64,000 bases of DNA from Spirochaetales bacterium (GTDB taxonomy: Bacteria > Spirochaetota > Spirochaetia > JABEVK01), in assembly GCA_037142615.1 (NCBI GenBank), contig JBAXAI010000004.1:32001-96000 (forward strand), given 5' to 3'. Of this stretch, positions 3,662 to 20,923 are shown piece by piece. How positions within the stretch are numbered: the stretch's first letter is position 1; the number at the start of each line of letters is the position of its first letter. Below the pieces are notes generated by a model. The model saw only the letters and a program-made list of their open reading frames with translations. It did not search any database and was not told the DNA's origin. The position numbers and the translations under genes were made by a program.

Positions 3662-6606
3662 GCTTCCACCTTCTCAAGCAACCGGCTGTCGAGAAGGTTG
3701 ATGAGGTCTTCACTTTGCACGGGCTTTTTGAACACCTGGTCGATCTTCAGGCTGGCAATACGCATTTGATCCACGTCCTTGCCGGTGATCAGTACCACCG
3801 GGGTCTGCTCGTAAAGTGGGATCTTGCGCAACCGCTCGACAAACTCGTAGCCGTCCATCAGCGGCATCAGGATGTCGACACAAAAGGCGGAGTAGGTTTT
3901 GCTTCGGCAGGCCTTGAGGGCTTCAAAGCCGTTTTCGGCGGTGTCGACCCGGTATTGGGTGTCTTTGAGAATGGTCTTGAGGTTTTCACGCTGAATGGCC
4001 GAATCATCGACAATCAGCACCGTGTGGAGCGTCTGCCCGCCCAGAGTTGTCGGCGCCTGGGCGACCAGATTCATCGTCCCGGCCTGTTTGACGGCCTCGA
4101 CAATTTGCCGGGGGTCGAGGATCAGCACCAAGCGACTGTCGCGGAGGATGGTGCAACCCATCACAAACGGAGCCTTCTTGAGGAACCGCCCCAGGTTCTT
4201 GATCAGGATTTCTTGCCGCCCGAGCACCGAGTCGACCAAAATGCCGGTCAGACGGTTGTTTTCGTTGAGCACCACCATCTGCACCTTGTCGAGCTGAAAA
4301 CGGCTCTGCGGGAAGTTCAGAATCGCCGAAAGACTGGCCACGGGGATAGTTTGACCCTGGTAGTTGAAAATCAGGCGGTTCTCGACGGGGCGGATCTCTT
4401 GGCGCTGCACGGTGATCAGCGCCTCGATGTTGAGGATGGGCAAGGCGAACTGGTACGAGGATTCCTGCACCAGCAGAATTTTCACGATGGCCAGGGTGAG
4501 CGGGAGCTTGAGCTTGAAGCACGAACCATGGCCGGCCTGGCTTTCGGTTTCGATGGTGCCGTGCAGTTGATTGATGGCGGTTTTGACCACATCCATGCCG
4601 ACGCCGCGCCCCGACAGCTCGGTCACCTTGTCGTTGGTCGAAAAGCCGGGGAGGAAGATCAGTTCGAGGATTTCGGCATCGGTCAGCTTTCCCTTCTTGT
4701 TTTCGGGGATCAGATCCTTTTCCAGGGCCTTGGTGAGCACCCGGTCGACGTTGATGCCCCGCCCATCGTCGCGAATTTCGATGACGGCGTACGAACCGTG
4801 GTAGTAGGTTTCGAGCGTGATGGTGCCGACTTCGGGTTTGCCGAGCGCCAGGCGTTCTTCGGGGAACTCGATGCCGTGGTCGATGGAGTTGCGCAGCATG
4901 TGCAGCAGGGGGTCGGCCAGTTTGTTGATCAGCACTTTGTCGAGTTCGGTATCGCCGCCGACGATGTCGACACGGATCTTTTTGCCCACCGTTCGCGCCA
5001 GGTCGCGCAGTTGCAGCGGGAAGCGCTCAAAGAGGTTGGAAATCGGCACCATGCGGAAGCTCATCGCTCCGTTTTGCAGGCGGGTCGATAGCTGCTCCAG
5101 CGTCTCCAGGTTCTTTTGCAGCTGCTTCTGAATCTCTTCTATGGTCAGATAGTTGAGGTTCAGCTCTTCCTGCAGCGACATTTCGGCGCCCGAATTGTCG
5201 GGAATGAGCCGCGTGACCATTTGCGACAGCAGTTCGCCAAGTCGGTTTCCTGAGCTTCGACCGGAGCTGCGGCCGGGTTCGTTCAGGTGTTTGAGTTCTT
5301 TGGCAAACTCGGGAATGTAGAGGTTCAGTTTGGCCAGCATTCTCGAGCGCTGCAGCTCGGAAGCGCGCTCCAAAGTCGACTTGAACGACTTGAGAAACCC
5401 CTCAATGGCGGTGATTTCGTTCTGGAACCGGATGCGGCCGATGAAAATCTCGGAAGCTGTGTTGAGAACCTCGTCGAGTTTTTCGGAGCTCACCCGCAGC
5501 GACTCGGTGTTTTTGCCCCGGTCTTTGTCGGTTCCCCCGGCCCGCGGGGCTGGCGGGGCCACGGGCCCGAGCACCGGCGCAGAAACGGCGGGAGTCGGGG
5601 CCGGTGCCGGTGCCGGTTGACCCGCGATCAGGGCCTGCAGACGTTCCACCAACGGCCGGATCCGGGTGACAAAAGGCCCCCGCGAGGCGGTCTCCTCGAC
5701 CATTTCGGACAAAACGGCCTTGCCATCGAGCAGCAGGTCTACCACCTGCGAGCTGGCCTTCAGTTTGCCCTTGCGCACCAGGTCGAGCAGGTTTTCCATG
5801 TTGTGGGCCAGGCATTCGAGCTTCTTGATGTTGAGCAGGCGCGCGCCACCCTTGACGGTGTGAATCATCCGGAACAGGTCGTCGACGAGGGCAGGCGTGT
5901 CGGTGGCATTTTCGAGGTCGATGAGCAAGTTCGCGAAGTTGGCCAGGATTTCCGAGTTTTCTTCGTAGAAGTCGCTGATCATCCCCACTTTGTCGAGCGG
6001 CACGTTGAGCGGCTCCGGCTCGTCATCAAAGGGAATCTCGAGCGCTGGCAGGGTCGTGGCCGCGACGGGGCCTTCCACAACGGCCTCTTCGACCGGAAGG
6101 TCGTGCACCGGTTGGCTTTGATAGGCCTTGCTCGCCTCGTCGATCCGCAGGTTCCACTCGCGCAGCGGATTCTGCAGGTAATTGCGGCTCTCGTCCACGA
6201 GGTCGGTGATGTCCGGGTCCTGGGTTGCGGCGGACCCCAGGGTCTCCGCCAGTTCGCTGCCCTTGGTATAGAGCAGTTTGATCAGGTAATCGATGGAGTG
6301 CTCGCGAACCGTCTTGCGGTAGCGGGCCCAGTCAAGGGCGAAATCCAAAATCTGAAACAAGTGAGCGAGCTTGTCCAAACCGTGCAGCTTGGCCATCCCC
6401 GCCATGATGTGGTTATTGCGGTACAAATGGTCGAGAAGCTCCTCGCTTTCGGGAGTCAGGCTCAGTTCGTCGAGCAGGTCGAGTTGCGCTCGCACCGAGG
6501 CCGGCAAGCTTTGGGCAAAACTCAGGGCCGCAGGCGAAAGTCCGTCGGGTGCTGCGCTCTGGTGGTCCGACGAAAGGTTGGCGAGCACGCTGTCCTGGTA
6601 CTTCAT
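3658..6606 (-). CDS. cheA: CheA-REC hybrid chemotaxis kinase with two Hpt-like domains
   Basis: Hpt LFRMIHTVKGGA plus an N-terminal Hpt-like LYRNNHIMAGMA; HMLRNSIDHGIE, DDGRGI, FLPGFST, SGRGVGMDVVK; CheW domain; C-terminal REC. Start moved from the ORF track to ATG 6606 after AGGAG. Confidence 0.92.
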   Translation of the reverse strand: MKYQDSVLANLSSDHQSAAPDGLSPAALSFAQSLPASVRAQLDLLDELSLTPESEELLDHLYRNNHIMAGMAKLHGLDKLAHLFQILDFALDWARYRKTVREHSIDYLIKLLYTKGSELAETLGSAATQDPDITDLVDESRNYLQNPLREWNLRIDEASKAYQSQPVHDLPVEEAVVEGPVAATTLPALEIPFDDEPEPLNVPLDKVGMISDFYEENSEILANFANLLIDLENATDTPALVDDLFRMIHTVKGGARLLNIKKLECLAHNMENLLDLVRKGKLKASSQVVDLLLDGKAVLSEMVEETASRGPFVTRIRPLVERLQALIAGQPAPAPAPTPAVSAPVLGPVAPPAPRAGGTDKDRGKNTESLRVSSEKLDEVLNTASEIFIGRIRFQNEITAIEGFLKSFKSTLERASELQRSRMLAKLNLYIPEFAKELKHLNEPGRSSGRSSGNRLGELLSQMVTRLIPDNSGAEMSLQEELNLNYLTIEEIQKQLQKNLETLEQLSTRLQNGAMSFRMVPISNLFERFPLQLRDLARTVGKKIRVDIVGGDTELDKVLINKLADPLLHMLRNSIDHGIEFPEERLALGKPEVGTITLETYYHGSYAVIEIRDDGRGINVDRVLTKALEKDLIPENKKGKLTDAEILELIFLPGFSTNDKVTELSGRGVGMDVVKTAINQLHGTIETESQAGHGSCFKLKLPLTLAIVKILLVQESSYQFALPILNIEALITVQRQEIRPVENRLIFNYQGQTIPVASLSAILNFPQSRFQLDKVQMVVLNENNRLTGILVDSVLGRQEILIKNLGRFLKKAPFVMGCTILRDSRLVLILDPRQIVEAVKQAGTMNLVAQAPTTLGGQTLHTVLIVDDSAIQRENLKTILKDTQYRVDTAENGFEALKACRSKTYSAFCVDILMPLMDGYEFVERLRKIPLYEQTPVVLITGKDVDQMRIASLKIDQVFKKPVQSEDLINLLDSRLLEKVEA

Positions 6607-6608
6607 GG

Positions 6609-7556
6609 TCACTCCTGATAGGGCAAGAGGTGTCGGCTGGCAAAGATCTTGGGCCCCGAGATGACGAAGATTCGCTCGGTTCCCGCCTCGATGATGCCCA
6701 AAAGGTAGTCGGCAAGTTCGCCCGAAAAGATATGGTCCACATTCTGGATCTGGCTGCGCAGGAACTTCTGCTTCTTCGAAATCGAGTCGATGCAAAGGGC
6801 CAGGTCCTGCTCCTCGTGCTGCAGCAAAATGTACTGGTTCTTTTCTTCCATCTTGCGGCTCGAAAGCCCGATCGCCTCCGAGATATCCACGCAGGCGATG
6901 ATCTGGCCACGCAGGTTGATGAGCCCGCGCAGAAAGCTGTTGGTTTGAAACAGTGGCTCGACGCTGTAGCCCGAAACCACCTCGATCAGATCGGTGATCG
7001 GGATCCCGAACCGGTGGTGGTCGATGCCAAAACAGACCATCTCGATTTCGTCCTTGGGGTCCACATGTTCTTCTTCCGGATGGAGTTGGGTGTCTTGCCC
7101 CTGCAGCTGAACGTGGATGTTGTTTTCGACGAACGACTTCAGGTAGTGCAAATTGAGGCGGTTCAGGGCCTTCCCCCGGTAACGGAACACCTGGTCGACC
7201 AGTTGCCCCGAGACTTCGGGCAACGGAGGAGTTTCTTCGGCCCCCTCTGCAGTCTCCAGGACCAAGGATTCGACAAAACGGTCGATCAGGACGGCAAAGA
7301 GCCGCGACTCGCACTCCAGCACCATCAAAGTATGCGGTCCGGCGGCTTCGCTCGGAGGCCGACTTCCGCCGGCCGCGTGAATATCAATCACCGGGCATAG
7401 GGTCTGGCGAAAGTCCAGATACCCCAGGAACCCCGACGTGAGGACCGGAGCCAGTACCAGTGTGGGCGTCCGAATCACCTCGCGGACGTGGTCGATCTGG
7501 ACGCAATAGTGAAACTCGTCCTTGGTGAAAACGGAATAGTGGCTACCGGTATCCAT
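6609..7556 (-). CDS. cheW: Tandem-domain CheW adaptor
   Basis: Two CheW repeats: FLGYLDFRQTLCPVID and FLRGLINLRGQIIACVD. Confidence 0.85.
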   Translation of the reverse strand: MDTGSHYSVFTKDEFHYCVQIDHVREVIRTPTLVLAPVLTSGFLGYLDFRQTLCPVIDIHAAGGSRPPSEAAGPHTLMVLECESRLFAVLIDRFVESLVLETAEGAEETPPLPEVSGQLVDQVFRYRGKALNRLNLHYLKSFVENNIHVQLQGQDTQLHPEEEHVDPKDEIEMVCFGIDHHRFGIPITDLIEVVSGYSVEPLFQTNSFLRGLINLRGQIIACVDISEAIGLSSRKMEEKNQYILLQHEEQDLALCIDSISKKQKFLRSQIQNVDHIFSGELADYLLGIIEAGTERIFVISGPKIFASRHLLPYQE

Positions 7557-7579
7557 GGGGGGCCTCTTTTACCGACGGT

Positions 7580-9325
7580 TCAAAAGTCTTCGTCCGCGGC
7601 CTCGCCTTTGCTGCCAGCCGAGCTCAGCGACTTGCGCCGGGAGGGCGGTGACGACAACCGCTCCGTCTGCCGATGCGAGGCCGAGGAAAGTTGCAGCGGT
7701 CGGTCTTCCTTGTGCACCCGGAAGAAGCTCAACGTTTCTTGGAGCAACTGAAGCTGGGCCAAGGAGTCTTTGGCGATGGCGGCCAACTCGACACCGACAC
7801 CGGCGTTGCTCTGCACGCCTTCATCCAGTTGCTGGATGGCTGAGTTGATCTGGTGCACTCCCGTGCTCTGTTCGGCCGAGGCTTCCGAGATTTGCTGCAC
7901 CAGGTCGGCGGTGCGTTGAATATCGGGGGTCAACTTGATCAGTTTTTGCCCGGCAAGTTCGGAAATCTGCATGCACGACGCCGTGAGGTTGGTGATTTCG
8001 ACCGCCGCAGCCTCGCTGCGCTCGGCCAGCTTTTGCACTTCGGAGGCGACCACTGCAAAACCCCGGCCCTGTTCGCCGGCTCGTGCCGCTTCGATCGCCG
8101 CGTTGATGGCCAACAAGTTCGTCTGGCCGGCGATGTCCTGGATGACCGAGATCTTGGCGGCGATTTCTTTCATCGCCTTCACCGTATTGCTCACCGACTC
8201 GCCGGAGTCTTTGGTGTCCATGGTGGCTTGAATGGCAATTCTTTCGGTGCTGATGGCGTTGTCGGCGTTTTGTTGAATGCTGACCGAGATCTCTTCCATT
8301 GCGGCAGCCACTTCTTCGAGCGAAGCCGCCTGCGAACTGGTGCTCAGCGACATTTCCTGCGCAGAGGTGGTCATTTGCCGCGCTCCGGTCGAGATGCTGT
8401 CGACAGCCGTGCCCAACTCGCCGATGATGCGGGTCAGCGACTCCTTCATCCGGGCCAAGGACATCCCCAGCACGTCGCGGTCGTTGAGCGGTTTGATTTC
8501 GAGCAGCAACGAGCCTTTGGAAATCGTTTCCAGCGATTCGGCCCGGTCGCGCAGCGTCACCATCATCTGGTCCATCGCGGTGGCCAACTGGCCCAGTTCG
8601 TCCTTGCGTTTGAGGTCTTTCGGGCGCAAGGTGTGGTCCAGGTCTCCTGCCGCGACCTTGGCGGCGAGGTCCACCGAGCTTCGCAGCGGACCAGAAATCG
8701 AGAAGGCGAGCAGGAAAGCCAAGAGCAGCGAAAGCACCACACCCACCACCATGATCACCGTCAGCAAGACGACCGAGCCCTGAACGTCGAGCTCGCTTTG
8801 TTTGAAAAGGCCTTCCACCTCGCTCACCGTCGAGGTGGTCATCGTACCGAGACTCGCGAGCAAGTCGGTTTTGGCCGCCAGCAACTCCGGCGACTTGAGA
8901 AACGCGACAAAAGCCGGAGTCTTGCCCACCAGCCCCAGACTCATGGCTTTGTCGCAAGCCTGAAACCACGCTACCGACGCCTTTTGCCAGGCTTCGAAGT
9001 TCTTCTGGTCTTGCGGGCTGCTGAAACCCGTGCTGTAGTTCTTGAGCACTTCCACGCAGATCGCCGAGGAATCGTCATAGCTTCGCTTCAAGGCCTCGTC
9101 TTCGGCCAACACCGAAGTGAGGGCCATGTCGCGGACCTGCTGGTTGACCTCGCTGAGGCCATCGGTGTACTTCAGGACCATCAACAGGCTTTGGGTCCCG
9201 TTGTTGTACGAGTCGTCGACCGCCTTGAGGGCCTTTTGAAGGCTGATGATCCCCAGGGCCCCCATCAACAGACCGACCAGGGCGACCCCCACAAAGCCTG
9301 AAATGAGTTTCACACGAATGGACAT
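7580..9325 (-). CDS. Methyl-accepting chemotaxis protein (periplasmic helical sensor, HAMP, signalling domain)
   Basis: 2 TM; hairpin tip [40 protein letters not shown]; SD GGAG upstream. Confidence 0.95.
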
Positions 9326-9492
9326 GAGTTCTCCTCCACAGCGAAGGCTGTAGTTTGAAGTTTAGGCCTATGAAAACGAATAGTCTAGAGATTTTGGAAA
9401 AAAGGTTGATGAATCCCGGCTCCGGTGACGGAACTAAACAATATTGACTGGCATAAACTTCTGATCGATCCTTAGGAGTGCGGAGGCCACCC

Positions 9493-11496
9493 ATGGCGCG
9501 TTCAGTTCTTGCGGGGTTCAAGCACATTTCCACCAAGTTGCAGTTGATTTTCGGGGGGCTGATTCTTTTGGCCCTCGTCGCTCTCGGTGCCGTGGTGTTC
9601 AGCTTTCTTTCGGCCAACCTGGCGGCTCGCGGTAGTTGGGAACTGGGGGTGAATACCCAGATCATCGCGGCGATGACCGAACACCAGATCAACAAGTCAA
9701 TTGAACAGGGCCTGACAAAACACGCCCAGGACGCGGCGGCGGTTGCCCAGTTTCTGTACCAAAAGGCGCTGGATGGAACCCTCAAAGAGCCCGCAGCCCG
9801 CGAATTGTTCACCCAGTTCATTCTGAAGTCCAACATGTCGAAGATCGGCGACACCGGGTATTTGGCGGCGATCAACAGCAACGGCATCGCGGTGGTTCAT
9901 CCGACGAGCCCGGGCAAGGACTTCAGCACCTACGAGTTCATGCAAAGGGCCCTCAAGCAGAAGAACGGAATCATTTCGTACATGCTCAAGGGGGCCAACG
10001 ACACCGAGGAACGCCAAAAGGTAGGCGGCATGGCCTATTTTGAGCCTTGGGACATGATTATCTGGGCCTCGTCGTACCAGTCGGAGTTCACCAACCTTCT
10101 CGACGTTCCCTCGCTGACAAAAATGCTTTCTGAGGTGGCCAAGGAGCAGAAGGTCGAAATCTTCGTCGTGACCAAGGATGGCAAGGCGATCCTGAACCCC
10201 TACCAGAGCAAGCCTCAGATGCTCGAAGCCGTCGATGCCCAAGGTGTACCGTGGGTTCGGCACCTGCTCGAAAACCCTGCGGGAGTGAGCCTTTTTGAGC
10301 CGCTTGATCCGGCGGGCAAACCCCTGGGCCAACGGACGGCCCAATCCGCGAAGCTCGACCTGCTCCCCTGGGTCATCGTCGTCGCTGTGCCCTCGGTGAC
10401 CATTTCGGAGGCGGCCACGACCTCGCTCCTGATCATCATCATCGCCTCGGTGGTGCTTTTTGTGCTGTTCGTTCTGATTACCAACCGGGTGACCCGCAGC
10501 CTGACGCTGCCCATCACCAACACGCAGGCGCTGCTTTCGAAGGCCCTGGCCGGCGATCTGGCCAAGAGAATCCAGATCGAGAGCGCCGATGAGGTGGGCC
10601 AGATGGGTCAGCACTTCAACGAATTGCTGGCCATGTTGTCGGACCTCATCCAGCAAATCCAGTCCAACTCCACCGAGATCACCGACATGGTGCAGGGTCT
10701 GTCGGCCTCGACCCAGGAGATCAGCGCCACCGCCAACGAGCAGGCAGCGGCCGTCAAGGAAATTGTTTCCACCATTGAAGATACCAATCATCTGGCCAAG
10801 AACATCTCGACCCGGGTCGAGGAAGTGAGCCGCATCGCCACCGACACCAAGGGCAATGTCGAAGAAGGCTTCACCGCTGTGCGCGACAACATCTCCAAGA
10901 TGAACGAGATCCACGACGCCAACGGCAAGACCATTTCGGGTATCAACTACCTCAGCGACAAGATCAAGAACATCTGGGACATCGTGAACATCATCAACAG
11001 CATCGCCGACCAGACCAAGATCATCGCCTTCAACGCCGAACTCGAAGCCTCGAGCGCCGGCGAAGCGGGTAAAAACTTCCAGATCGTCGCCTCCGAGATC
11101 CGCCGTTTGGCCGACAGCACCGTCACCTCGACCAACGAGATCAAGATCCGCATTCAGGAAATTGAACGCAGCAGCGACGCCCTGTTGCTGTCGAGCGAGC
11201 AGGGGACCCTGCAAATTGTTCAAGGCAAGGACCTTTCGCAGCGCATGAACAAACTTTTCGGCGACATCGCCCTGAGTTCCGAAGTCAGCAGCAGTTCGAC
11301 CCAGCAGATCGCCGTGTCGATCCGGCAGCAGGTGAGCAGTTTTGAGCAGATTCTCATCGCCATCAAGCAGATTTCGCAGGGGGTCGACAACTTCGTCGTG
11401 GCCACCAAATCGACTTCGGGCACCACCGAAAACCTGCGCAAGATGGCCAACAAGCTGTCGGCCATGCTCGGCAAGTTCGACATGGGGCAAGGCTGA
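9493..11496 (+). CDS. Methyl-accepting chemotaxis protein with Cache-type periplasmic region
   Basis: Cache-like IGDTGYLAAINSNGIAVVHP; HAMP DEVGQMGQHFN; tip IADQTKIIAFNAELEASSAGEAGKNFQIVASEIRRLA; ATG 9493 after GGAGG. Confidence 0.93.
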   Translation: MARSVLAGFKHISTKLQLIFGGLILLALVALGAVVFSFLSANLAARGSWELGVNTQIIAAMTEHQINKSIEQGLTKHAQDAAAVAQFLYQKALDGTLKEPAARELFTQFILKSNMSKIGDTGYLAAINSNGIAVVHPTSPGKDFSTYEFMQRALKQKNGIISYMLKGANDTEERQKVGGMAYFEPWDMIIWASSYQSEFTNLLDVPSLTKMLSEVAKEQKVEIFVVTKDGKAILNPYQSKPQMLEAVDAQGVPWVRHLLENPAGVSLFEPLDPAGKPLGQRTAQSAKLDLLPWVIVVAVPSVTISEAATTSLLIIIIASVVLFVLFVLITNRVTRSLTLPITNTQALLSKALAGDLAKRIQIESADEVGQMGQHFNELLAMLSDLIQQIQSNSTEITDMVQGLSASTQEISATANEQAAAVKEIVSTIEDTNHLAKNISTRVEEVSRIATDTKGNVEEGFTAVRDNISKMNEIHDANGKTISGINYLSDKIKNIWDIVNIINSIADQTKIIAFNAELEASSAGEAGKNFQIVASEIRRLADSTVTSTNEIKIRIQEIERSSDALLLSSEQGTLQIVQGKDLSQRMNKLFGDIALSSEVSSSSTQQIAVSIRQQVSSFEQILIAIKQISQGVDNFVVATKSTSGTTENLRKMANKLSAMLGKFDMGQG

Positions 11497-11501
11497 CGGC
11501 C

Positions 11502-12011
11502 ATGGACTCCACCGAGATTCTCGAAGGGATCGAGCGGTCTCAAGACCTCGGAGGGCAGGGCACAGTCGTGGCCTCAAGCGACACCAAGTACATCATCTTC
11601 ACGGCAGGGGCCAAGCTCTACGCCTTGCTCGCTGACGACGTTCAGGAAATCATGCTGGGTTCCGAGATCCACTACCTGCCCTTTTTGCCAAGGTTTGTCC
11701 GTGGTTTGATCAACCGCCTCGGAGAACCGCTCACCGTGCTGGATCTCGAGTGCCTTCTCCAGGGACAACCGTTGCAGGGCAAGGCGTTCATCATCCTCAA
11801 GCCCCACCTTTCGAAGATGGCCCTGCTCATCGATGCGGTGCAGGACATCAGTCGGGTTCCCTCGCTGTCTATCCGCACCGTTTCGGAAGGCAGCCAGGGC
11901 CAGGACGCGTTTGTCGATGGCGTCTTCAGCCGCAAGGACGGCGATGTGACCCTTCTGTCGCTGCCCCACATCATTGCTGCGGTTCGGAAGGCCGTCGATG
12001 CTGCGAGCTGA
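11502..12011 (+). CDS. cheW: CheW adaptor
   Basis: YIIF..LYAL..VQEI, LPFLPRFVRGLINRLGEPLTVLDL. Confidence 0.85.
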   Translation: MDSTEILEGIERSQDLGGQGTVVASSDTKYIIFTAGAKLYALLADDVQEIMLGSEIHYLPFLPRFVRGLINRLGEPLTVLDLECLLQGQPLQGKAFIILKPHLSKMALLIDAVQDISRVPSLSIRTVSEGSQGQDAFVDGVFSRKDGDVTLLSLPHIIAAVRKAVDAAS

Positions 12012-12528
12012 CTTTTTGGTGCTGCATTACGGGACTTTCGACCTCCTCTTTGCCCGGGACACGCTCTACGCTTCGACCTTTCGAAAGCCTTGCGAGGGAG
12101 TGACGGGCCGAGCCCGCGTGTCGTTTGGGCAGAAGGCCATCCTCGATATTGACCTTGATTCCTACGTGCGGCACCTGTTTCCTTCGGCCAGCGCGAGCCC
12201 GCCCCACCTGGGTGCCGTCTGCAAGGCCGCCGATCTGGCGGGTGGGAGCGACCAACTCGAGGGCGAGGAGCTTTTTTCGTTGGCCATTCCTTCGGATTCG
12301 GAAGTGCGGGCCTTGGAACTGTCGGAGTTCCGGCCCCTCCCGTTTCACCTGCGCCCTTGCCTCGACCGTCACGGCCTGCGGGCCCTTCGCTTTGAAGGGA
12401 GCCTGATTCAGTTCTTCTGCGACGCCGGAGTCTTTATTCCCGGGTGTCTGGCCTTTCATCAGTACAAAGGAGATAACGATGACCGTTCTGGTAGTTTCCC
12501 CGTCGGCTCTGCTACGCTCCACGCTTAA
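11998..12528 (+). CDS. Hypothetical protein, possibly a highly diverged CheW-like beta domain
   Basis: Fills the gap between cheW and cheB and overlaps both; weak CheW-like pattern (GVTGRARVSFGQKAILDIDLD). Confidence 0.55.
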   Translation: MLRADFLVLHYGTFDLLFARDTLYASTFRKPCEGVTGRARVSFGQKAILDIDLDSYVRHLFPSASASPPHLGAVCKAADLAGGSDQLEGEELFSLAIPSDSEVRALELSEFRPLPFHLRPCLDRHGLRALRFEGSLIQFFCDAGVFIPGCLAFHQYKGDNDDRSGSFPVGSATLHA

Positions 12529-13450
12529 AGAACTTCTGGGCCAGGTGGCAGGGGTCGATGCGGTGAGGGAGTTGGGCTCCGAGCTCCAGTTGGAATCGAC
12601 TCTCGGCCAATACGACCCCGCCCTAGTTCTCGTCGACGAAGCGCTGAACCTCAACCTGGCGCAGGTTGGCGGAGTATCTGGCACCGCGCCGGTCGTGATC
12701 CTCCTTCAAGGTCCCTCAACGCCGTCGCGAGCGCGGGCGTTGGCCAAACCCGATTTTGCCAGCGCGAGCCAAACCGACCTGAAAAAGACCTTTCTGCCCC
12801 TCCTGAGCGAGCTGGTGGTGGCTGCCGACGAAAAGCGTCAGCGAGGGGCCAACCCGCGCAACGGGGGCTCGACGGGGGCGTTTTCCCTGCTCGTGATCGG
12901 GGCTTCCACCGGCGGACCGGCTGCTGTCCGGACGGTCTTGTCCCATTTCGGCCCCGATTTTCCTTACCCGATAGCGTTGGTGCAGCACATCGATACCGGC
13001 TACGACGAGGGCTACGCCGCGTGGCTGGCACAAAACACCCGGCTGAAGGTGCGTTTGGCGCACGAAAACGACAGACCGTTGCCTGGCGAGGTGATCGTCG
13101 GGCCCAACGACGTGCACCTGGTTTGCCAAGGCGAAACCTTTGGCCTCGACGATGGCCCCAAGGTCCTTAGCCAGAAGCCCGCTGTGGACCGGTTGTTTTC
13201 CAGCGTGGCCCGCTACCATGGGGCGGGGGTTCTCGCGGTGCTTCTCACCGGAATCGGCTCGGATGGAGCCAACGGTTGCCTCGACATCGTGAAAGCCGGG
13301 GGCGTCACGATCGCCCAGGACGAAGCCACTTCGACCGTGTACGGCATGCCCCGGGCCGCCGCCGAGTTGGGGGCCGCCACCTACGTCTTGGGCCTCGACG
13401 CCATCGGCCCGGCGGTCCTGGAGCTGATCGCCAAGCGGCAACCATTGTGA
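12479..13450 (+). CDS. cheB: CheB methylesterase with a degenerate N-terminal receiver
   Basis: Catalytic motifs IGASTGG, VQHI, LTGIGSDG, AQDEATSTVYGMP; SD AAGGAG. Confidence 0.92.
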   Translation: MTVLVVSPSALLRSTLKELLGQVAGVDAVRELGSELQLESTLGQYDPALVLVDEALNLNLAQVGGVSGTAPVVILLQGPSTPSRARALAKPDFASASQTDLKKTFLPLLSELVVAADEKRQRGANPRNGGSTGAFSLLVIGASTGGPAAVRTVLSHFGPDFPYPIALVQHIDTGYDEGYAAWLAQNTRLKVRLAHENDRPLPGEVIVGPNDVHLVCQGETFGLDDGPKVLSQKPAVDRLFSSVARYHGAGVLAVLLTGIGSDGANGCLDIVKAGGVTIAQDEATSTVYGMPRAAAELGAATYVLGLDAIGPAVLELIAKRQPL

Positions 13451-14286
13451 TCGGCGAGCAGCGGCTCGAAGAACTGCGCCACTACCTCGAGCACCGGCTG
13501 TCGCTGGTGGTCCCCGAGACCAACTTTTCGCGGTTGGCCGAGTTCGTCGGCGAGCGCCTGGCCGCCCGGGTTTGTTCGTTCGCCGAGTACCTGGAGTACC
13601 TGGCGATCGACGCGGCCGAAATGGACCTGCTCATCCAGGTCTCCACCATTGGCGAGACCTACTTCTTCCGTGACGAAGACCACTTCACCTTGTTGCAACA
13701 GCAAATCCTGCCTTTCTTTGCCTCCCAGGGGCATACCCCCCTCGCTTGGAGCGCCGCCGCCTCCACCGGTGAAGAGGCTTTGTCGCTCGCCGCCCTTTAC
13801 GCCGACTTTTTCGGCAGTACCCTGCCTTTGGGGGGCAAAATCTGGGCCTCCGACATCAACAACCTCGCGCTCGAATCCCTCGTGTCGGGCTCGTATTCCT
13901 TCCGGTCCCTTCGCGACGACGGAAGCCGGTTTCACCCGCTCTTGGAACCCTGGCTTACTCGCGGCACAGACCATCTCCAGGTCGATTCGCGCCTCAACAG
14001 TCAAGTCCAAGCTCGGCATATCAACCTGATGACCGACAGCTTCGAGAGCATCCCTGGCCGCGTTGATATTCTGTTTCTGAAGAACATGCTGATTTACTTC
14101 CCGCTGGAACGTCGAAAGGCCATTTACCGCAAGGTGAGCGAAAAGCTCTCGCCGGAGGGGTTCTTGATACTCGGGAAGTCCGAAGTCCCCTTTTTCGAGG
14201 ATCCCGGGCTGAAACTCCTGGAACACGGAGGACTGTTCTTCTTTGTCGCCAAGACCTCGTCCTTCGAGGCAAGGAGCCTGCCGTGA
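13447..14286 (+). CDS. cheR: CheR methyltransferase
   Basis: TIGETYFFRD, WSAAASTGEE, ASDIN, DILFLKNMLIYF; GTG start overlaps the cheB stop. Confidence 0.88.
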   Translation: MIGEQRLEELRHYLEHRLSLVVPETNFSRLAEFVGERLAARVCSFAEYLEYLAIDAAEMDLLIQVSTIGETYFFRDEDHFTLLQQQILPFFASQGHTPLAWSAAASTGEEALSLAALYADFFGSTLPLGGKIWASDINNLALESLVSGSYSFRSLRDDGSRFHPLLEPWLTRGTDHLQVDSRLNSQVQARHINLMTDSFESIPGRVDILFLKNMLIYFPLERRKAIYRKVSEKLSPEGFLILGKSEVPFFEDPGLKLLEHGGLFFFVAKTSSFEARSLP

Positions 14287-16364
14287 TCTCGACGGAACTT
14301 CTGAGTTTGTTCCAGACCCAAACCCGCGCTACCCTTGTAACGCTTCGCGCACTTCTGGTGCAGGCCCTTCGCAACGCCGACGACGAGATCCTCTGGATAC
14401 GGCTGCGGCGCCTGCTCGAAGCGCTGGCTGCCGACGCCCAGGCTGCCGAAAACACCGGTTTGGCCACGTTGGCAACCGCGATGAACCAGATTCCTACCGG
14501 ACTCCTCGAGGGGCGGTATTCGTTCGGCCCGCTCTACGTCAAGCTTTTGATGCTGCTCGCCGAGCACCTCGAAGACCTTCTGGGTGCCGTGTCGCAAACC
14601 ACCACCGAAAGGCTCGTCACCCTGTGCGACCTGTGCAACCGGGCCTACAACCGCGAGTCGTTTTCGCTCAAGGGGTTCTCGCTGGCCGAAATGCTGCAGC
14701 AAAAGCTGGCGCCGGAGGCCGCCAAGCTCGAGGCCAAGGGTGAGGAGTCGGTCCAAGTGAGCCTCGAGACGGTGGAACGCCTGGGTGAGAGGCTTAATTC
14801 GGTGATCGTGCACCAGTTCCAGCTCAAAAAGAACGGCGACGGCCTCTCGCTGGTCGAAGAAGCCGTGCGTGACCTCCTCGGGGGGTTGGCCGCCGGAGAA
14901 GCGGGGCCCAAAACGCGGCAGCGGGCCGAAACCGTTTTGAAGGACCTGCAGACTCTGGGAACCGGCCTCAAGGAAGACCTGCTGGCGGTGGACCGCTCGT
15001 CGTTTGGACTGCAGGAAGAGATTGCCCGGCTGCGCATGTTGCCCTTCCAGGTGATCTGCGAGCGATTGTCGGCGCACGCCCGCAAGCAGGCCCAGGGGGC
15101 TGGCAAAACCGTTGAGTTAGGCGTTCAGGGCCAAGACACCCTGCTCGACAAATCGATTCTCGAGCTGGTTTTGGTCCCGCTGTCGGAACTGCTTTCGAAC
15201 GCGGTGGCCCACGGAATCGGGCCCGGTGGCGACGGACAGGTGAAACTCGAGTGCTCGAGCGACGGCACCTCGATCCGCATCGCCGTGGTCGATCACGGTC
15301 CCGGGGTTGACTTCGAAGCGCTCCGCACGGCGGCTTTGGCGGCTTTCCCGTTGGAGCGTGCCGAAATCCTGGCCATGGGCGCCGAGCAGTTGACGAGGTT
15401 CCTGTTCGAGCCGGGCCTGGGAAACCGAACCGGGCTCGCCGCTGTCAAAGAAGCTCTCGACGCCATGCAGGGCAAAATCACCGTGGAATCGCCAACGGGA
15501 GCCGGTACGACGGTCGTGCTGCAAATCCCGGCTTCCGTGTCGCTGGTGAGCGGTTTTTTTGTCCGGGCCGGGGGCGAGAGGTTCTTCATTCCCGCCGTGT
15601 ACGTGCGCGAAGTGGTCATTTTTCAGCGCAGCCAACTGGTCAGTTTGCCGGGAGGACCCGTCTACCCGCTGCGGCAGGAAATGGTGCCCGTTGTTCCCCT
15701 GGCGAACGTGTTCGAAGGCAAGGAGGCCCTGCGCAAAGAGGTCGAGCAGATGGCCGTCATTTCGCTGCTAGGCGAAACCTGGGGCCTCATTCTCGACACG
15801 ATTGTGCGCCACGCGACCCTGGGCTACAAACCGCTTCCCGACAACCTTTCGTCGCTCAAGGAGGTGCAGGGCCTCGTCTACGACGAAAAGTTCAACCTGG
15901 TGCCCATCCTGAGCATCCCGGCGATCATCATCCAGATCCGACGCCTGCGCTCGATCGAGTTTCGCCAGCGCTACCAAAGAGCCGACGTTTCGGGGCGCAA
16001 TATCCTCTTGGTGGATGACAGCCTGGTCTCCCGCCAGACCTTGGGGCGCATCCTGACCGACGGAGGTTTCACCGTCGAGGTGGCCGAAGACGGTATCGCG
16101 GCGCTCGAATTGCTGCACCACAAATACTTCCATCTGGTGATCACCGACGACGAAATGCCACGGATGGATGGCCTGACTCTGGTCGAGAATCTGCGCAAAG
16201 AACCCGAGTACGTCGAAGTGCCCGTCATCGTCCTGGTCGCCGAACGCGACGGTGAGGCCGAAGGCCGGTTCCGCAACGCTGGCATCCGCGACTTTTCCCT
16301 CAAGTCCGACTTCGACCGCCACGCCTTGCTGCGCGACATCCGTCGGCTCTTGGCGCGGGGCTAG
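14283..16364 (+). CDS. Degenerate CheA-REC hybrid (His-less Hpt, truncated ATP lid, CheW domain, REC)
   Basis: RLRMLPF, ELLSNAVAHGI, DHGPGVD, GKITVESPTGAGTT, CheW domain, REC ILLVDDS..ITDDEMPRMDG; the Hpt helix reads LRRLLEALAADA. Confidence 0.85.
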   Translation: MISTELLSLFQTQTRATLVTLRALLVQALRNADDEILWIRLRRLLEALAADAQAAENTGLATLATAMNQIPTGLLEGRYSFGPLYVKLLMLLAEHLEDLLGAVSQTTTERLVTLCDLCNRAYNRESFSLKGFSLAEMLQQKLAPEAAKLEAKGEESVQVSLETVERLGERLNSVIVHQFQLKKNGDGLSLVEEAVRDLLGGLAAGEAGPKTRQRAETVLKDLQTLGTGLKEDLLAVDRSSFGLQEEIARLRMLPFQVICERLSAHARKQAQGAGKTVELGVQGQDTLLDKSILELVLVPLSELLSNAVAHGIGPGGDGQVKLECSSDGTSIRIAVVDHGPGVDFEALRTAALAAFPLERAEILAMGAEQLTRFLFEPGLGNRTGLAAVKEALDAMQGKITVESPTGAGTTVVLQIPASVSLVSGFFVRAGGERFFIPAVYVREVVIFQRSQLVSLPGGPVYPLRQEMVPVVPLANVFEGKEALRKEVEQMAVISLLGETWGLILDTIVRHATLGYKPLPDNLSSLKEVQGLVYDEKFNLVPILSIPAIIIQIRRLRSIEFRQRYQRADVSGRNILLVDDSLVSRQTLGRILTDGGFTVEVAEDGIAALELLHHKYFHLVITDDEMPRMDGLTLVENLRKEPEYVEVPVIVLVAERDGEAEGRFRNAGIRDFSLKSDFDRHALLRDIRRLLARG

Positions 16365-16366
16365 CG

Positions 16367-17914
16367 ATGTTCGTCGTGCTGCTGGGCGACGCGGCGTTGT
16401 GGCCCGAGGTGTGGCGTGCCCCGCCGTTGCAGTTCCTGTGCCTTGCCAGCGACGACGGGTTCGCCGATTTCGACGGGGGCTCGCTGGACACGGTTCCCGA
16501 CCTTGTCGTGCTCGACCAACCGGGCGCCCCAGGGTTTCTCGCCCTTCTGAACCACCTCAAGTTCCAGTTTTCCGAGAACCGGACCCGACTCGTCGCCTGG
16601 TCGGGAACCCCGAGCCCGCGCGAAGTGTTTGTGTGCCACAACGCGGGGCTACTCCTTTTGCACCCCGGCCTGGTCGAGGAACTTCCTTCGCTGGAGGCTC
16701 TACCCAGGCCCGTTCTTCCTGGTTCGCCGAGGCCGGAGGCGCTGAACCTCGAAAATCTCGGGTTCGCGCTGAGCCTGCACCAAAACCTGACCCAGTCGTT
16801 TTTGGAAAGCCAGAACCCGACGGCGCTGTTTTGGCACCTGCGAAATGCCTTTTCCCTGGTTTCGAATCCGGACATCCTGGTATTCATCCTGAAGGACCGC
16901 CCGCAAATCAAGGCGACAATCTTCTCTGGGCCCGGCCTCGCCACCACCGAGTGCGATTATTTTTTACGTTTCTGCCAGCAGGATTTTTTGGGGACCGACC
17001 GGTTTGTCGACCTCGAGTCGATGGAAGTCGAGTACCTCGAAAAGGACCAGCGGCTCTTGACGGGGCGGGGCCGGGGAGCGCTGAGCTCGTATTGGTTCCA
17101 CGAGCTGAAGGACCCGCAGGGAACGAGCCTCGGGACGGTTCACAGCGGCAGTTTCAGCAACCAGTATTTTACCCCCCTGGTCGAGCGGCGTCTGTCGTAC
17201 CTGGCGGTTCTGGTGGGGCCCCTGGTCGGCATGATGCAGCGCGGCCAGCAACTGAGCCGACGTTTCGTGTCGCTGAGGGCCCTGTTCGGAAAGTTCCTCC
17301 CCGACCCGGTGGTGGAAAAACTTCTGGCCGCCGAGCAGGATGGACCGTTGGAAGAGGGCCGGAAGCAGGAGCTGGCCATTTTGTTTTCCGACATCCGGGG
17401 CTTCACGTCGATCACCGAGCGAAACGGTGCCGAGGCGGTGGTCGGCTTCCTGAACCGGCATTTCGACGCCATGGTGACGGCCATTGTGGCCCACGGCGGC
17501 GTTGTCGACAAGTTCATCGGCGATGCCATCGTCGCGGTGTTTGGCATCAACCCGCTGCCGACTTCGGCGGCCGAGGCCGCTGCCCGGGCCGCGCGGGCCA
17601 TGATGGCAACCCTGAACACCGTGGACCTTTCGGGTCTTGCACTCGAAGGCAACGCCTACCGCATCGGCATCGGCCTGCACTTCGGCGAAGTCGTTCTCGG
17701 CTACCTGGGCTCAGACGAAAAGACCTCGTTCACCGTCATCGGAAAGGCCGTGGAAACCGCCGAACTCCTGGAGTCGTCCACCAAGCTTTACCACGTCGAT
17801 ATTTTGGCTTCCGGGGAACTGCGCGACCAGATTCAGGCCGAAGACCTGGCGTTCATCGACCTCGGCAAGCTGGAAGACGCCGAAGGAGACACCCTCAGGG
17901 TGTATACGGTATGA
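16367..17914 (+). CDS. Class III nucleotide cyclase subunit: metal-binding Asps present, transition-state Asn/Arg absent
   Basis: FSDIRGFT and DKFIGDA present; FTVIGKAVETAELLE replaces GDxVNxAxRLE; no KGK. Confidence 0.85.
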   Translation: MFVVLLGDAALWPEVWRAPPLQFLCLASDDGFADFDGGSLDTVPDLVVLDQPGAPGFLALLNHLKFQFSENRTRLVAWSGTPSPREVFVCHNAGLLLLHPGLVEELPSLEALPRPVLPGSPRPEALNLENLGFALSLHQNLTQSFLESQNPTALFWHLRNAFSLVSNPDILVFILKDRPQIKATIFSGPGLATTECDYFLRFCQQDFLGTDRFVDLESMEVEYLEKDQRLLTGRGRGALSSYWFHELKDPQGTSLGTVHSGSFSNQYFTPLVERRLSYLAVLVGPLVGMMQRGQQLSRRFVSLRALFGKFLPDPVVEKLLAAEQDGPLEEGRKQELAILFSDIRGFTSITERNGAEAVVGFLNRHFDAMVTAIVAHGGVVDKFIGDAIVAVFGINPLPTSAAEAAARAARAMMATLNTVDLSGLALEGNAYRIGIGLHFGEVVLGYLGSDEKTSFTVIGKAVETAELLESSTKLYHVDILASGELRDQIQAEDLAFIDLGKLEDAEGDTLRVYTV

Positions 17915-19662
17915 GCACCCCACCGAAAACCCTGCTGGTGCTCGATGACTCGGAGTTCTTCTCGGCGTTCCTTGAGCCCATTCTCGAAGCTTCGGGCTAC
18001 GCTGTCACCACGCGCCCGGAACTGGCCGGCGCGTTGCTGATCGATCCCACGTGGCATTCCGATTCGGGCTACCTGCTGCTGGCGGCGCTGCGCGAGCTTG
18101 CCCCCCGCACAACGCTTCCTGTCGTGGTTCTGCTGGCCTCGACGAGCAGCCAGTCGAGGGCCTTTCTTCAGGGCCTGCAGTTCCCCTGGACGGTGAAAGG
18201 TCGGCTGAAGGCCGAGTCTCTGGGCCGCTACGTCGGCCGCCACTTGGGGCAGCAGGCCTGGGCCGGAGAGTTTGGCCGCCTGGTCGAAGAGGCTCTGGCC
18301 AAGTCGCTCCAGGTCGACTCCCGGCCGTTTTTGCACCCGCTGATCAGCGGCTCGTTGCTTCACGCGATTTCCGAGGCCGATCACCTGGCCAGGGCCCTCG
18401 AATTGGGCGTCCAGTCGCTGTTGGATCATTTTCCGTTGCTCGCCGCGGGCCTGGAAGTGAATGGTTCCCGTCTGTTGGCCTGTTGTGCGAACCCCGAGGC
18501 CAGGCGGGCGGCCACGGCAGTCCGCGAGACCTTGGGTTGGTCCCCGGAACCGTCCGAGCCCGAACTGCGCGAACTTTCGGCTGATTTTCCGGGGTGGCGG
18601 GCAACCGGCGGGCAGGCAACCGGGGGGCAGTTCGAGCGGAGTTTCACGTTGCCTCGCTGCGGTGGCCGGCTTGTCGCCGTATTCGGTACCGACGACGACC
18701 TGATTCTCGATTACTTTGGGCGTGCGCTCGACGATTTCGACCGGGCTTTGACGGTCCTGACCCAAGGCCTGGCTCTGGCAAACTCCGAGCGGCGCGTGTT
18801 TCGGGTCTTTTCGCGCTTTGTGCCCTCGGTGGTGATCGAGGATCTGCTGCGAAAACGTTCGGCCGCCGCCCTGCTCACCGGCGAAAAGCGACGCATCGTC
18901 GCGCTGTTTTCCCACGTGCGCGACTTTTCGTTCTACGTCGAGGAAAATGACCCGAAAGAACTGGTGCGGTTCTTGAACCGCCATTTCAGCCTTTACGCCA
19001 AGGTCATCCGCAAGCACGGAGGGTTCATCAACAAATACATCGGCGACGCCGTGTTTGCGATTTTTGGAGCGCCGGTCAGCCACATCGACAACGCCCGCCG
19101 GGCGCTTGCCGCTGCCCTCGAGATCCAGCAGGAACTGGCCCAATTGCCGTTGCTGGACCTGCACTATCCCCCCAGTGGCTACCGGGTCGGCCTGGGCCTC
19201 AACGAGGGCGAGTCCATCGTCGGCAACATCGGCAGCCGGGACTCCTTTGACTACACGGCCATCGGCGACACCATCAATCTCGCGGCCCGTCTGGAATCGC
19301 TGTGCAAGCACTACCAGGTCGAGCTGCTGCTGTCCCAGGATTTCCGGCAGGCCTTGGAGTCGCAGGAAGATCCGCACCCGCTGCGGCAGGTCGACCGGGC
19401 ACGCGTCAAGGGAAAGCTGGTGCCGACGGTATTCCATACCGTGTACCCCGCCGAGTTTGACCTCGAGTTTGACCGCTGCTACCGCAAAGGCCTCACCATG
19501 TTCCGCCTCGGCAACTGGACCACGGCGCTCGAGTTTTTCGAAAAAGGCCTCGAACTGGATCCCAGCGACTTCCTGTGCGGCCTGTACTCGCAGCGCTGCC
19601 GCGAGTTCTTGAAGGCACCTCCTGTGAGTTGGGACGGCGCCATCACGCTGGGGTTCAAATAG
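17911..19662 (+). CDS. Class III nucleotide cyclase subunit (REC-like N-terminus, TPR-like tail): first metal Asp replaced by His
   Basis: FSHVRDFS, NKYIGDA, DYTAIGDTINLAARLE, VKGK, terminal WDG; ATGA overlap at 17911-17914 gives the real start. Confidence 0.87.
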   Translation: MSTPPKTLLVLDDSEFFSAFLEPILEASGYAVTTRPELAGALLIDPTWHSDSGYLLLAALRELAPRTTLPVVVLLASTSSQSRAFLQGLQFPWTVKGRLKAESLGRYVGRHLGQQAWAGEFGRLVEEALAKSLQVDSRPFLHPLISGSLLHAISEADHLARALELGVQSLLDHFPLLAAGLEVNGSRLLACCANPEARRAATAVRETLGWSPEPSEPELRELSADFPGWRATGGQATGGQFERSFTLPRCGGRLVAVFGTDDDLILDYFGRALDDFDRALTVLTQGLALANSERRVFRVFSRFVPSVVIEDLLRKRSAAALLTGEKRRIVALFSHVRDFSFYVEENDPKELVRFLNRHFSLYAKVIRKHGGFINKYIGDAVFAIFGAPVSHIDNARRALAAALEIQQELAQLPLLDLHYPPSGYRVGLGLNEGESIVGNIGSRDSFDYTAIGDTINLAARLESLCKHYQVELLLSQDFRQALESQEDPHPLRQVDRARVKGKLVPTVFHTVYPAEFDLEFDRCYRKGLTMFRLGNWTTALEFFEKGLELDPSDFLCGLYSQRCREFLKAPPVSWDGAITLGFK

Positions 19663-19714
19663 GCGCCTTTCTCGAAGGCGGAGAATCCGTGCTACTATGC
19701 GCTGGGGGCCCCAC

Positions 19715-20923
19715 ATGGAGCGACTGCAAGACGGTTACTGCCTCGTCCTTTCGGGCGGTGGTGCCAAGGGCGTGTACCACATCGGGGTGTGGAGGGCCCT
19801 CAAGGAACTGGGAATCGGCGTGCAGGCGTTTGTCGGCACCTCCATCGGCGCCATCATGGCCGCTCTTTTGGCCCAAGGTTCCGACGCTGAGCTCGAAACC
19901 ATCGGCAAGACCATCACCCTCGACGCCATCCTTGCTCTGCCTCCCGAGTTGCTCGGTGGCTTGGTCGAACACCGCGGTTTGGACACGGCTCCACTCCGGG
20001 CCCTGTTGGAACAGCACATTCAGGAACCTGCTCTGCGTCGCAGCGGAGTCGATCTGGGCATTGTCACGGTCAACCTGAGTTCGCTCAAGGCCGAGGAACT
20101 GTTCCTCGACAGCATCCCCGAAGGGAGCCTGATCGACTACCTGATGGCCAGTTCGGCCTTCCCGGGGTTTTCCACGCCCGTGATCGAGGGAAAGCGGTAC
20201 GTCGATGGGGGACTTCACGACAACATTCCGCACGCGGTGGCCCGCAAGCGCGGCTATACGAAAGTGATTGTCAGCGACATCTCGGGTTTCGGTTTCAAGA
20301 AGGCGCCCGACGTGGAAGGTTCGGTGACCGTCTTCATCAAAAGTTCCATCAAAATGGGCAGCGTGCTCGACTTTCGTCGGGAGTTCCTCGACGACTTCAC
20401 GCTGCTGGGCTATCTCGATACGCTGCGGACGTTCGGGGTGCTCCACGGACGCGACTACGCGGTTGAGCCCAACCCCGAAGCCGAGGTTGCCTTCGCGCGC
20501 GAGCCCACCAGGATTGCGACCGCGCGGGAGGTCCTTCCCGACGAACGAAAGTTGGATCGACTGGTTTGGTTGCAATTGCTCGAATGCTCTGCCCTCGTGT
20601 TTGGCGTTCCCCGGGTTCGGCGCACAACCTACGAAGAACTGGCGCGGGCCGTCGTGGACCGGCGAACCGCCGAAGACGCCCAAGTCGCCGAACTAGCGCA
20701 GGTGGAGGGAAGCGGGAGGCTCTCGCTGCTCAACACCCTGCGCGAAGCCGTGTCGAAGAAGAGCCTCAACTGGAGTCCCTACGTGACTTGGAAGCTGTTG
20801 GAGCATTTGGTGCCGGCACAAGCTGACCGGCTCGTGCTGAGAACCTTGTCGGCGTTGCAACCCGAGTTACCGGCCGCCCTGCAGGCCTTGCAGACCCTGG
20901 ATCAGGCCACAGCCCTAACTTAG
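19715..20923 (+). CDS. Patatin-like phospholipase
   Basis: LSGGGAKG, nucleophile GTSIG, DGG; start approximate. Confidence 0.9.
   Translation: MERLQDGYCLVLSGGGAKGVYHIGVWRALKELGIGVQAFVGTSIGAIMAALLAQGSDAELETIGKTITLDAILALPPELLGGLVEHRGLDTAPLRALLEQHIQEPALRRSGVDLGIVTVNLSSLKAEELFLDSIPEGSLIDYLMASSAFPGFSTPVIEGKRYVDGGLHDNIPHAVARKRGYTKVIVSDISGFGFKKAPDVEGSVTVFIKSSIKMGSVLDFRREFLDDFTLLGYLDTLRTFGVLHGRDYAVEPNPEAEVAFAREPTRIATAREVLPDERKLDRLVWLQLLECSALVFGVPRVRRTTYEELARAVVDRRTAEDAQVAELAQVEGSGRLSLLNTLREAVSKKSLNWSPYVTWKLLEHLVPAQADRLVLRTLSALQPELPAALQALQTLDQATALT

Follow-up and report, generated by a model that had tools for sequence, protein, structure and literature searches.

In this study, we analysed a stretch of 64,000 nucleotides from a Spirochaetales bacterium (contig JBAXAI010000004.1, positions 32,001 to 96,000 of the forward strand; hereafter the window) and within it two neighbouring genes, A and B, each of which encodes a nucleotide cyclase domain of class III. 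The catalytic residues of this enzyme class are divided reciprocally between the two domains, and A and B together probably form an obligate heterodimeric adenylyl cyclase, class IIIb-like by its Lys/Thr pair, which would serve as the output of a Che-type chemosensory system. This heterodimer reading, which derives from sequence comparison, is strongly supported but not proven. A and B have a common origin, belong to one operon, are coupled and show a conserved reciprocal loss of catalytic residues. Their ancestor was one response-regulator gene with the order REC, GAF-like domain, cyclase and TPR, which is still found as a single, canonical gene in other spirochaetes.

Catalytic residues of the two cyclase genes

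Gene A (16367..17914, forward strand) encodes 515 amino acids with a degenerate REC-like N-terminus, a GAF-like middle and a cyclase domain at residues 331-515, and is the putative C1-like subunit. Gene B (17911..19662, forward strand), the putative C2-like subunit, encodes 583 amino acids, comprising a REC-like N-terminus, a diverged middle domain, a cyclase domain at residues 328-505 and a TPR tail at residues 523-553. Both proteins match PF00211 above the cut-off of 21.9 bits (A with 6.4e-18 and 65.4 bits, B with 4e-16 and 59.6 bits), and solved class III cyclases are their top matches in the PDB. As a reading of the window made from the letters alone (hereafter the sequence-only reading) had stated, the two genes share an ATGA start/stop overlap (17911..17914, forward strand), an arrangement of translational coupling. 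In the junction ACGGTATGAGC, the ATG of B (17911-17913) runs into the TGA of A (17912-17914), giving an overlap of four bases. An open reading frame of 1136 amino acids (16252-19662) was rejected as a gene: it is the B frame, which is open upstream through A, and the start of B at 17911 is fixed by the N-termini of its homologues.

The sequence-only reading had also claimed that A keeps both metal-binding Asp residues and lacks the Asn/Arg pair and KGK, whereas in B the first Asp is missing and Lys, Thr, Asn, Arg and KGK are present. This was borne out when the catalytic residues were assigned by alignment to solved cyclases and by a read-out at fixed columns of the profile hidden Markov model (HMM). 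In A, the metal-binding pair and the substrate Lys are all kept (D342, K382 and D386; codons 17390-17392, 17510-17512 and 17522-17524, forward strand), with D342 in the motif LFSDIRG and D386 in FIGDAIV. Further along A (17732..17881, forward strand) T456 is kept, E463 (17753-17755) stands for Asn and L467 (17765-17767) for Arg in the motif KAVETAELLES, and E503/A505 occupy the place of the lysines of VKGK. In B, H335 (18913..18915, forward strand; motif LFSHVRD) replaces the first metal Asp. The residues K375, D379, T449, N456, R460, K500 and K502 of B (19033..19416, forward strand) are all kept and fall on columns that are invariant in 29 sequences, N456 and R460 being part of TINLAARLES and K500 and K502 of VKGK.

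Taken together, the two metal Asps are present in A only, B retaining just the second one (D379), and the transition-state Asn and Arg are present in B only (N456, R460). The substrate-specifying Lys/Thr pair occurs in both proteins (K382/T456 in A, K375/T449 in B). Class IIIb is marked by Thr beside the Lys where other cyclases have Asp, and the pair fits ATP as the predicted substrate. When compared with the AC5 chain 8sl3_A, the best stretch for A is 466-605 and that for B is 1049-1249, by position the first and the second cyclase domain.

Conservation and origin of the gene pair

A profile scan with the A family was performed on 401 genomes of the phylum. Among its best 30 loci, 8 carry an A-type gene followed by a B gene with His at the first metal site (H-type B), and 22 carry one canonical gene. 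The reciprocal scan with the B family found 32 of the 401 genomes at E<=1e-110; its 30 loci comprise the same 8 genomes, with A directly upstream of the H-type B each time (8/8), and 22 canonical singletons. The two samples of loci are seemingly identical, as their family tallies match, and every singleton is canonical in each scan (22/22). Adding G002, a genome of the window's genus, and a named Spirochaetales metagenome-assembled genome (MAG; locus L021) to the 8 genomes from the scans gives ten pairs. Beside G002 and L021, these are in the window's genome (G000), G069, G071, G083, G095, G144, G158 and G181, and they span at least 8 family codes (f1, f37, f51, f58, f59, f74, f77 and an unplaced MAG).

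In all ten pairs A reads DDK(T/A) with a residue other than Asn at the transition-state Asn position and other than Arg at the Arg position, and B reads H-DKTNR. A gene of type A without B, or B without A, was never seen among the loci examined. The sequence-only reading had set random decay of these residues against a conserved complementary loss and had pointed to adjacent pairs in other genomes as the place to decide; such pairs were found, and the loss is complementary in 10/10 of them, the singletons being canonical, an outcome that favours the sequence-only reading. The spacing from A to B is -4 (ATGA) in three pairs, -1, -14, +1/+4 and +10 in four, and +20/44 and +78 in two further ones; in G158, B is about 840 nucleotides away. 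Thus, 7 of the 10 pairs overlap or are separated by at most 10 nucleotides. In seven further A/B protein pairs, both members come from contigs of equal length. A contig search with the generic motifs LFSDIR[SG]F and DKFIGDA gave 80 loci, mostly ordinary cyclases, with the pair in L021 only. In G317, two canonical genes of the singleton type lie about 3 kb apart on contig C9 (L105, L153), one with a shorter frame and one with a match that includes a TAG; this duplication may be independent, recent and not yet diverged.

The same division is visible at the level of proteins. Among the first 240 homologues fetched for A and B, only 19 proteins, all of the A family, have lost Asn/Arg, and only 25, all of the B family, have another residue in place of the first Asp, namely His in 24 and Lys in one. 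A single position deviates in six others (P0074, P0117, P0179, P0183, P0188 and P0230) and two positions in one (P0239); the remaining homologues are canonical. In the A family (17 sequences, down to 26% identity) D342, D386 and FSDIRxFT are invariant, K382 nearly so, and DKFIGDA and the Thr are invariant or nearly so. The Asn/Arg positions of this family are filled by EL, EG, RD, DE, ED, EE, GE, AE, TE, RE, SA, SE, GN and GH. The invariance of the retained residues across the 17 sequences indicates that selection maintains A in the role of one catalytic half. The B family has YTAIGDxxNLAxRLE and VKGK invariant and carries LFSH. The invariant halves are, accordingly, the Asp/P-loop part in A and the Asn/Arg/KGK part in B.

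A search of cluster representatives with the A profile yielded more A-type proteins and 15 H-type representatives of B type. In the same search (P0298-P0372), we observed many proteins of 1600-2400 amino acids with two cyclase domains in a C1/C2-like arrangement, the first domain reading DDR(T/S) without Asn/Arg and the second reading KTNR, with Gly, Thr, Gln, Ala or Ser where the first Asp would stand. These long proteins may be eukaryotic. In P0310 and P0374 (about 900 amino acids) the order of the two domains is reversed.

The genome of the window (4.27 Mb, 76 contigs) has 29 matches to PF00211, and 20 of its 30 cyclase-domain rows read DDK(T/D)NR. Of the other rows, four are the halves of two split matches, one is a fragment and one has a gap at the Thr; the full-length deviants are A, B and one further adjacent pair on contig C7. 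This second pair, which lies outside the window (locus L143; 2253-4961 and 4972-7533, both on the forward strand), encodes proteins of 902 and 853 amino acids, both with NHL repeats and PF00211, and also has reciprocal defects. Its first gene has Ser and Gly for the two metal Asps, keeps Lys, Thr, Asn and VKGR, and has the Arg shifted by one position (NLTRHL). Its second gene keeps both Asps and has His for Lys and Asp for Asn.

For the tree, 108 distinct cyclase domains were used (34 singleton, 33 B, 27 A and 14 outgroup domains), after merging of 7 identical rows and removal of domain hits with fewer than 150 profile columns. It was built by a quick IQ-TREE search and rooted with the outgroup rows, and the stars given by this quick method should be read with some caution. 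A forms one clade (support 99 in the Shimodaira-Hasegawa-like approximate likelihood-ratio test, SH-aLRT) and B another (90), both nested among the singletons. B adjoins a few singletons, A and B show three mirrored subclades, and the branches of A are longer, reflecting faster evolution. This topology fits one tandem duplication, after which A and B would have been inherited together.

To see which columns changed after the split, we compared the 78 profile columns with a conservation of at least 90% among the singletons. Both families keep 42 of these; 20 are relaxed or changed in A only, 10 in B only and 6 in both. Among the columns changed in A only are the Asn, the Arg, V-K-G-K, the GEKR strand, FGAP and the D/Y before the Thr. 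Those changed in B only include the Asp replaced by His, the Thr of FT (FT to FS) and IDKF, which became INKY. We take the first set to correspond to the C2-type role and the second to the C1-type role in known heterodimeric cyclases.

The origin of the two genes extends beyond the cyclase domain. The singleton proteins have about 600-650 amino acids. Pfam recognises a receiver in them (PF00072, 5.2e-22 and 4.5e-19) and, weakly, GAF_2; their cyclase domain is fully canonical, and they end in a TPR tail of the B type. In hhalign, residues 33-515 of A align with the singleton proteins, which combine REC, GAF and a cyclase homology domain (CHD), at probability 100, and residues 1-583 of B align with them from end to end, also at probability 100. 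A and B are therefore whole-length derivatives of a response regulator with the order REC, GAF-like, cyclase and, in part, TPR. Neither the REC-like and GAF-like N-termini nor this single-gene origin had been seen in the sequence-only reading.

The Che-type operon around the pair

A and B stand at the end of an operon of tightly packed genes on the forward strand, a context (MCP-CheW-orfX-CheB-CheR-CheA/REC) that was absent from the sequence-only reading. It begins with a gene for an MCP chemoreceptor with dCache/Cache, HAMP and MCPsignal domains (9478..11496, Pfam), followed by the CheW coupling protein (11502..12011; PF01584, 3.7e-17), the small gene orfX (11974..12528), the CheB methylesterase (12479..13450; PF01339, 6.2e-53) and the CheR methyltransferase (13276..14286; PF01739, 1.8e-33), whose real start may lie downstream. 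The last gene before the pair (14283..16364) encodes a CheA-type hybrid kinase with HATPase_c, CheW and C-terminal receiver domains according to Pfam and with matches to the NCBIfam CheA models; its stop lies 2 nucleotides upstream of the ATG of A. All components that characterise a Che-type system with a non-motility output, similar to the alternative cellular function (ACF) and Wsp systems, are present together, namely MCP, CheW, CheB, CheR and a CheA that bears a C-terminal receiver.

This arrangement is conserved. The order MCP-CheW-CheB-CheR-CheA-A-B was found in 8 other pair loci fetched with longer flanks, and a ninth locus, L132, is cut by the contig end. In all four singleton loci with long flanks the same operon is closed by a single canonical cyclase gene, and the MCP is likewise the first gene in the 8 pair loci and the 4 singleton loci. 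The orfX product, of about 180 amino acids, is a conserved member of the operon with no family assigned, possibly a divergent CheW: searches of Pfam and NCBIfam gave no match, and phmmer found it at the same operon position in 7 of the 8 other pair loci (it was missed in L021) and in 2 of the 4 singleton loci. Its neighbours in the Atlas are CheW-like (scores 0.76-0.77), no more than a hint.

From the position of the pair at the end of a Che operon and from its response-regulator ancestry, we infer that it is the cyclic AMP (cAMP) output of the chemosensory pathway. After one tandem duplication, A retained the metal/P-loop half and B the Lys/Thr/Asn/Arg/KGK half. In the mechanism that we propose, a head-to-tail A:B dimer would have one complete site, made of D342 and D386 from A and of K375, T449, N456, R460 and K502 from B. 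The second pocket, with H335 and D379 from B and K382 and T456 from A, would be dead. As these four residues stay conserved, this pocket probably still accepts a ligand, such as a nucleotide, and may have an allosteric role. The chemoreceptor would control CheA, and phosphate from CheA would be passed to the receiver-like domain of B, where the DD, D and K residues are retained. This phosphotransfer would change cAMP synthesis, with CheB and CheR supplying adaptation.

The weakest link of this chain is the control of the cyclase by phosphotransfer, which is uncertain. Residues 1-115 of B were placed on the singleton receiver by profile-profile alignment, with D12, D13, D45, S77/T78 and K96 at the relevant columns. 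The receiver of A looks degenerate: its N-terminus has G7-D8 and a His in place of the Lys, and the Asp column varies across the A family.

Some further features of these loci and of the window were observed. The CheR frame has 466-491 amino acids in all four singleton operons (L139-L142), including a C-terminal extension of about 200 amino acids that is not named by Pfam. It has 243-299 amino acids in the 8 related pair operons that cover CheR (L131-L138), and 336 amino acids in the open reading frame listed for the window. Apparently, the lineage in which the cyclase was split has lost this extension. The cyclase gene or genes are often followed by another MCP, of about 576-589 amino acids (L136, 10701-12428; also L021, L132, L134, L135 and L142). 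At this place the window has a gene for a patatin-like phospholipase (19697..20923, forward strand), which starts 35 nucleotides after B. It was considered as an effector of the system and rejected, as the G002 locus shows no such gene behind B, and it probably stands outside the system. The window also contains a second chemosensory cluster in divergent orientation (3658-9325, minus strand). It encodes an MCP of the 4HB-HAMP type, a protein with two CheW domains and a CheA of 1218 amino acids that comprises Hpt, dimerisation, CheW and receiver domains. A further canonical cyclase gene lies near the start of the window (about 1660-3670; genome C4:33661-35673, minus strand).

Alternative explanations and known systems

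Several points weigh against the heterodimeric cyclase and its proposed place in the pathway. The binding of A to B and the activity of A plus B are predictions. The His at the first metal site of B is strictly conserved and not random; it may serve a separate function, perhaps that of binding metal, and B could then be active alone. Neither A nor B has a match to PF00072 even at E<=10, the candidate phospho-acceptor Asp varies within the A family, and several B subclades have Asn instead or the Asp at a shifted position, all of which makes phosphotransfer control uncertain. An Hpt domain was not detected by Pfam in residues 1-300 of CheA. The pair is accessory, since only 2 of the 5 genomes of the window's genus have it; the other three are 80-93% complete. 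In G158, the distant B has an open frame of 375 amino acids only. At the level of RNA, three runs of one metatranscriptome study contain 5-14% of the sequence words, and 11 short RNA contigs with at least 99% identity lie on CheR, CheA, A and B, none of them spanning the A/B junction; this evidence is weak, no silent control stretch having been compared, and does not show transcription.

The conserved His leads to the alternative that B is the real enzyme, a homodimer with a His/Asp metal site, and that A is a pseudo-cyclase which regulates or titrates B, e.g. via inactive heterodimers, or which senses nucleotides. The occurrence of His335 in 24 of 25 B proteins and in 10/10 pair loci suggests function rather than decay, all other catalytic residues are kept in B, and the longer branches of A reflect its faster evolution. 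However, replacement of the first Asp is reported to inactivate known class III cyclases, and the Asps, FSDIRxFT, Lys and Thr of A are all but invariant in 17 sequences, although a protein that only regulates could do without them. The changes in B, moreover, fall mainly in the metal/P-loop half, which would be natural for a half without a catalytic use, and we consider this alternative unlikely. It is quite improbable, too, that A and B are separate homodimers of reduced or altered activity giving two differently regulated outputs, so that the residue pattern would have no mechanistic meaning. Both proteins do retain all of their domains, as well as the helix that precedes the cyclase part, and other adjacent cyclase genes of this genome (C18), both canonical, show that neighbours need not pair. 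Yet a homodimer of A would be without Asn, Arg and KGK in either site and a homodimer of B without the first Asp in either. The reciprocity in 10/10 pairs across at least 8 family codes, the absence of separated A and B genes in the loci examined and the tight junctions in 7 of 10 pairs speak against it as well.

Each protein alone fails the class III catalytic signature, so both domains could be catalytically dead, the pair serving the chemosensory array as a scaffold without enzyme activity or as a module that binds nucleotides. We regard this as very improbable, given that A and B between them have every catalytic residue of one site, all strictly conserved, and that the single genes from which they derive encode canonical cyclases. 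What speaks most against the three explanations alike is this one full catalytic set conserved across A and B together with their perfect co-occurrence.

A wider and more tentative idea, towards which we remain rather sceptical, is that spirochaetes independently evolved a C1/C2 design by locking a tandem-duplicated, homodimeric response-regulator cyclase as a heterodimer, with the dead pocket as a dedicated allosteric site for a nucleotide or ligand that gates the cAMP output of a chemoreceptor array. The unrelated NHL-repeat pair on contig C7 would be a second instance, and the design might be recurrent in bacteria and overlooked.

The asymmetric cyclase design with one active site is regarded as having arisen in eukaryotes, after a gene had been duplicated and the copies fused. 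If true, a conserved pair occurring naturally in bacteria would revise the picture of bacterial class III cyclases as homodimers with two equal sites. Because single-gene relatives are still living, the route from a symmetric to an asymmetric enzyme would become directly testable in soluble, tractable proteins, and it could be revealed why a degenerate second pocket is retained. In addition, cAMP would join the second messengers that are made directly by chemosensory arrays. What appears to be new here is a bacterial, two-gene, soluble, Lys/Thr-type and Che-linked version of the C1/C2-like design that would have been derived independently. In the full-text literature searched, which covers few subscription journals, we found neither a natural two-gene complementary class III cyclase of bacteria nor a Che-to-cyclase pathway in spirochaetes. 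The survey PMC2447327, available in part, may already suggest heterodimers among mycobacterial cyclases. GcyB and GcyC of R. centenum are described as non-catalytic subunits in the accessible part of PMC4681086 and as cyclase genes in that of PMC10187061; we rejected them as a precedent of C1/C2 type, as these parts do not show them to be such a pair.

The operon as a whole resembles the Wsp-type pathway, a member of the alternative cellular function class, which likewise comprises MCP, CheW, CheB, CheR and a CheA-REC hybrid, followed by a response regulator that makes a second messenger. However, the Wsp-type output is a GGDEF domain, whereas here it is a class III cyclase, and the single regulator is replaced by what appear to be two complementary half-enzymes with diverged receivers. 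Regulators of the type REC-'mononucleotidyl cyclase' have been catalogued in che clusters, according to the part of PMC3447774 that was available.

Among known cyclases, the proposed A:B enzyme resembles the C1/C2 domains of the mammalian membrane adenylyl cyclases. There, too, the metal Asps come from one half and the Lys, the base-specifying residue, the Asn, the Arg and the C-terminal Lys from the other, and one active site stands beside one degenerate pocket. In contrast to the mammalian enzyme, which is one fused polypeptide with 12 transmembrane segments and a Lys/Asp substrate pair, A and B are two translationally coupled genes for soluble proteins with REC-like and GAF-like N-termini and a Lys/Thr pair. 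They also differ by their independent origin from a spirochaete response-regulator cyclase, as given by the tree, and by the His conserved in the degenerate pocket. Soluble guanylyl cyclase alpha/beta and the chytrid rhodopsin-cyclase/NeoR heterodimers (PMC8815786) share with the A/B reading the two gene products, the obligate heterodimer of class III domains and the split catalytic residues. Both of these systems are eukaryotic, make cGMP and have other sensor domains, whereas A and B are bacterial, of the ATP-type Lys/Thr pattern and located in a Che operon.

Bacterial cyclases of the Rv1625c type have the same fold as A and B and an active site that is likewise built at the interface. These enzymes are homodimers, and the obtainable part of PMC9552081 states for bacterial class III cyclases that they homodimerise with two equal sites. 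The asymmetry of A and B is, in contrast, natural, spread over two genes and conserved. Complementary mutants of Rv1625c were reportedly engineered by Guo et al. in 2001, a study that PMC9552081 cites. These Asp-minus and Arg-minus mutants are the engineered counterpart of the state in which A and B seem to occur in nature.

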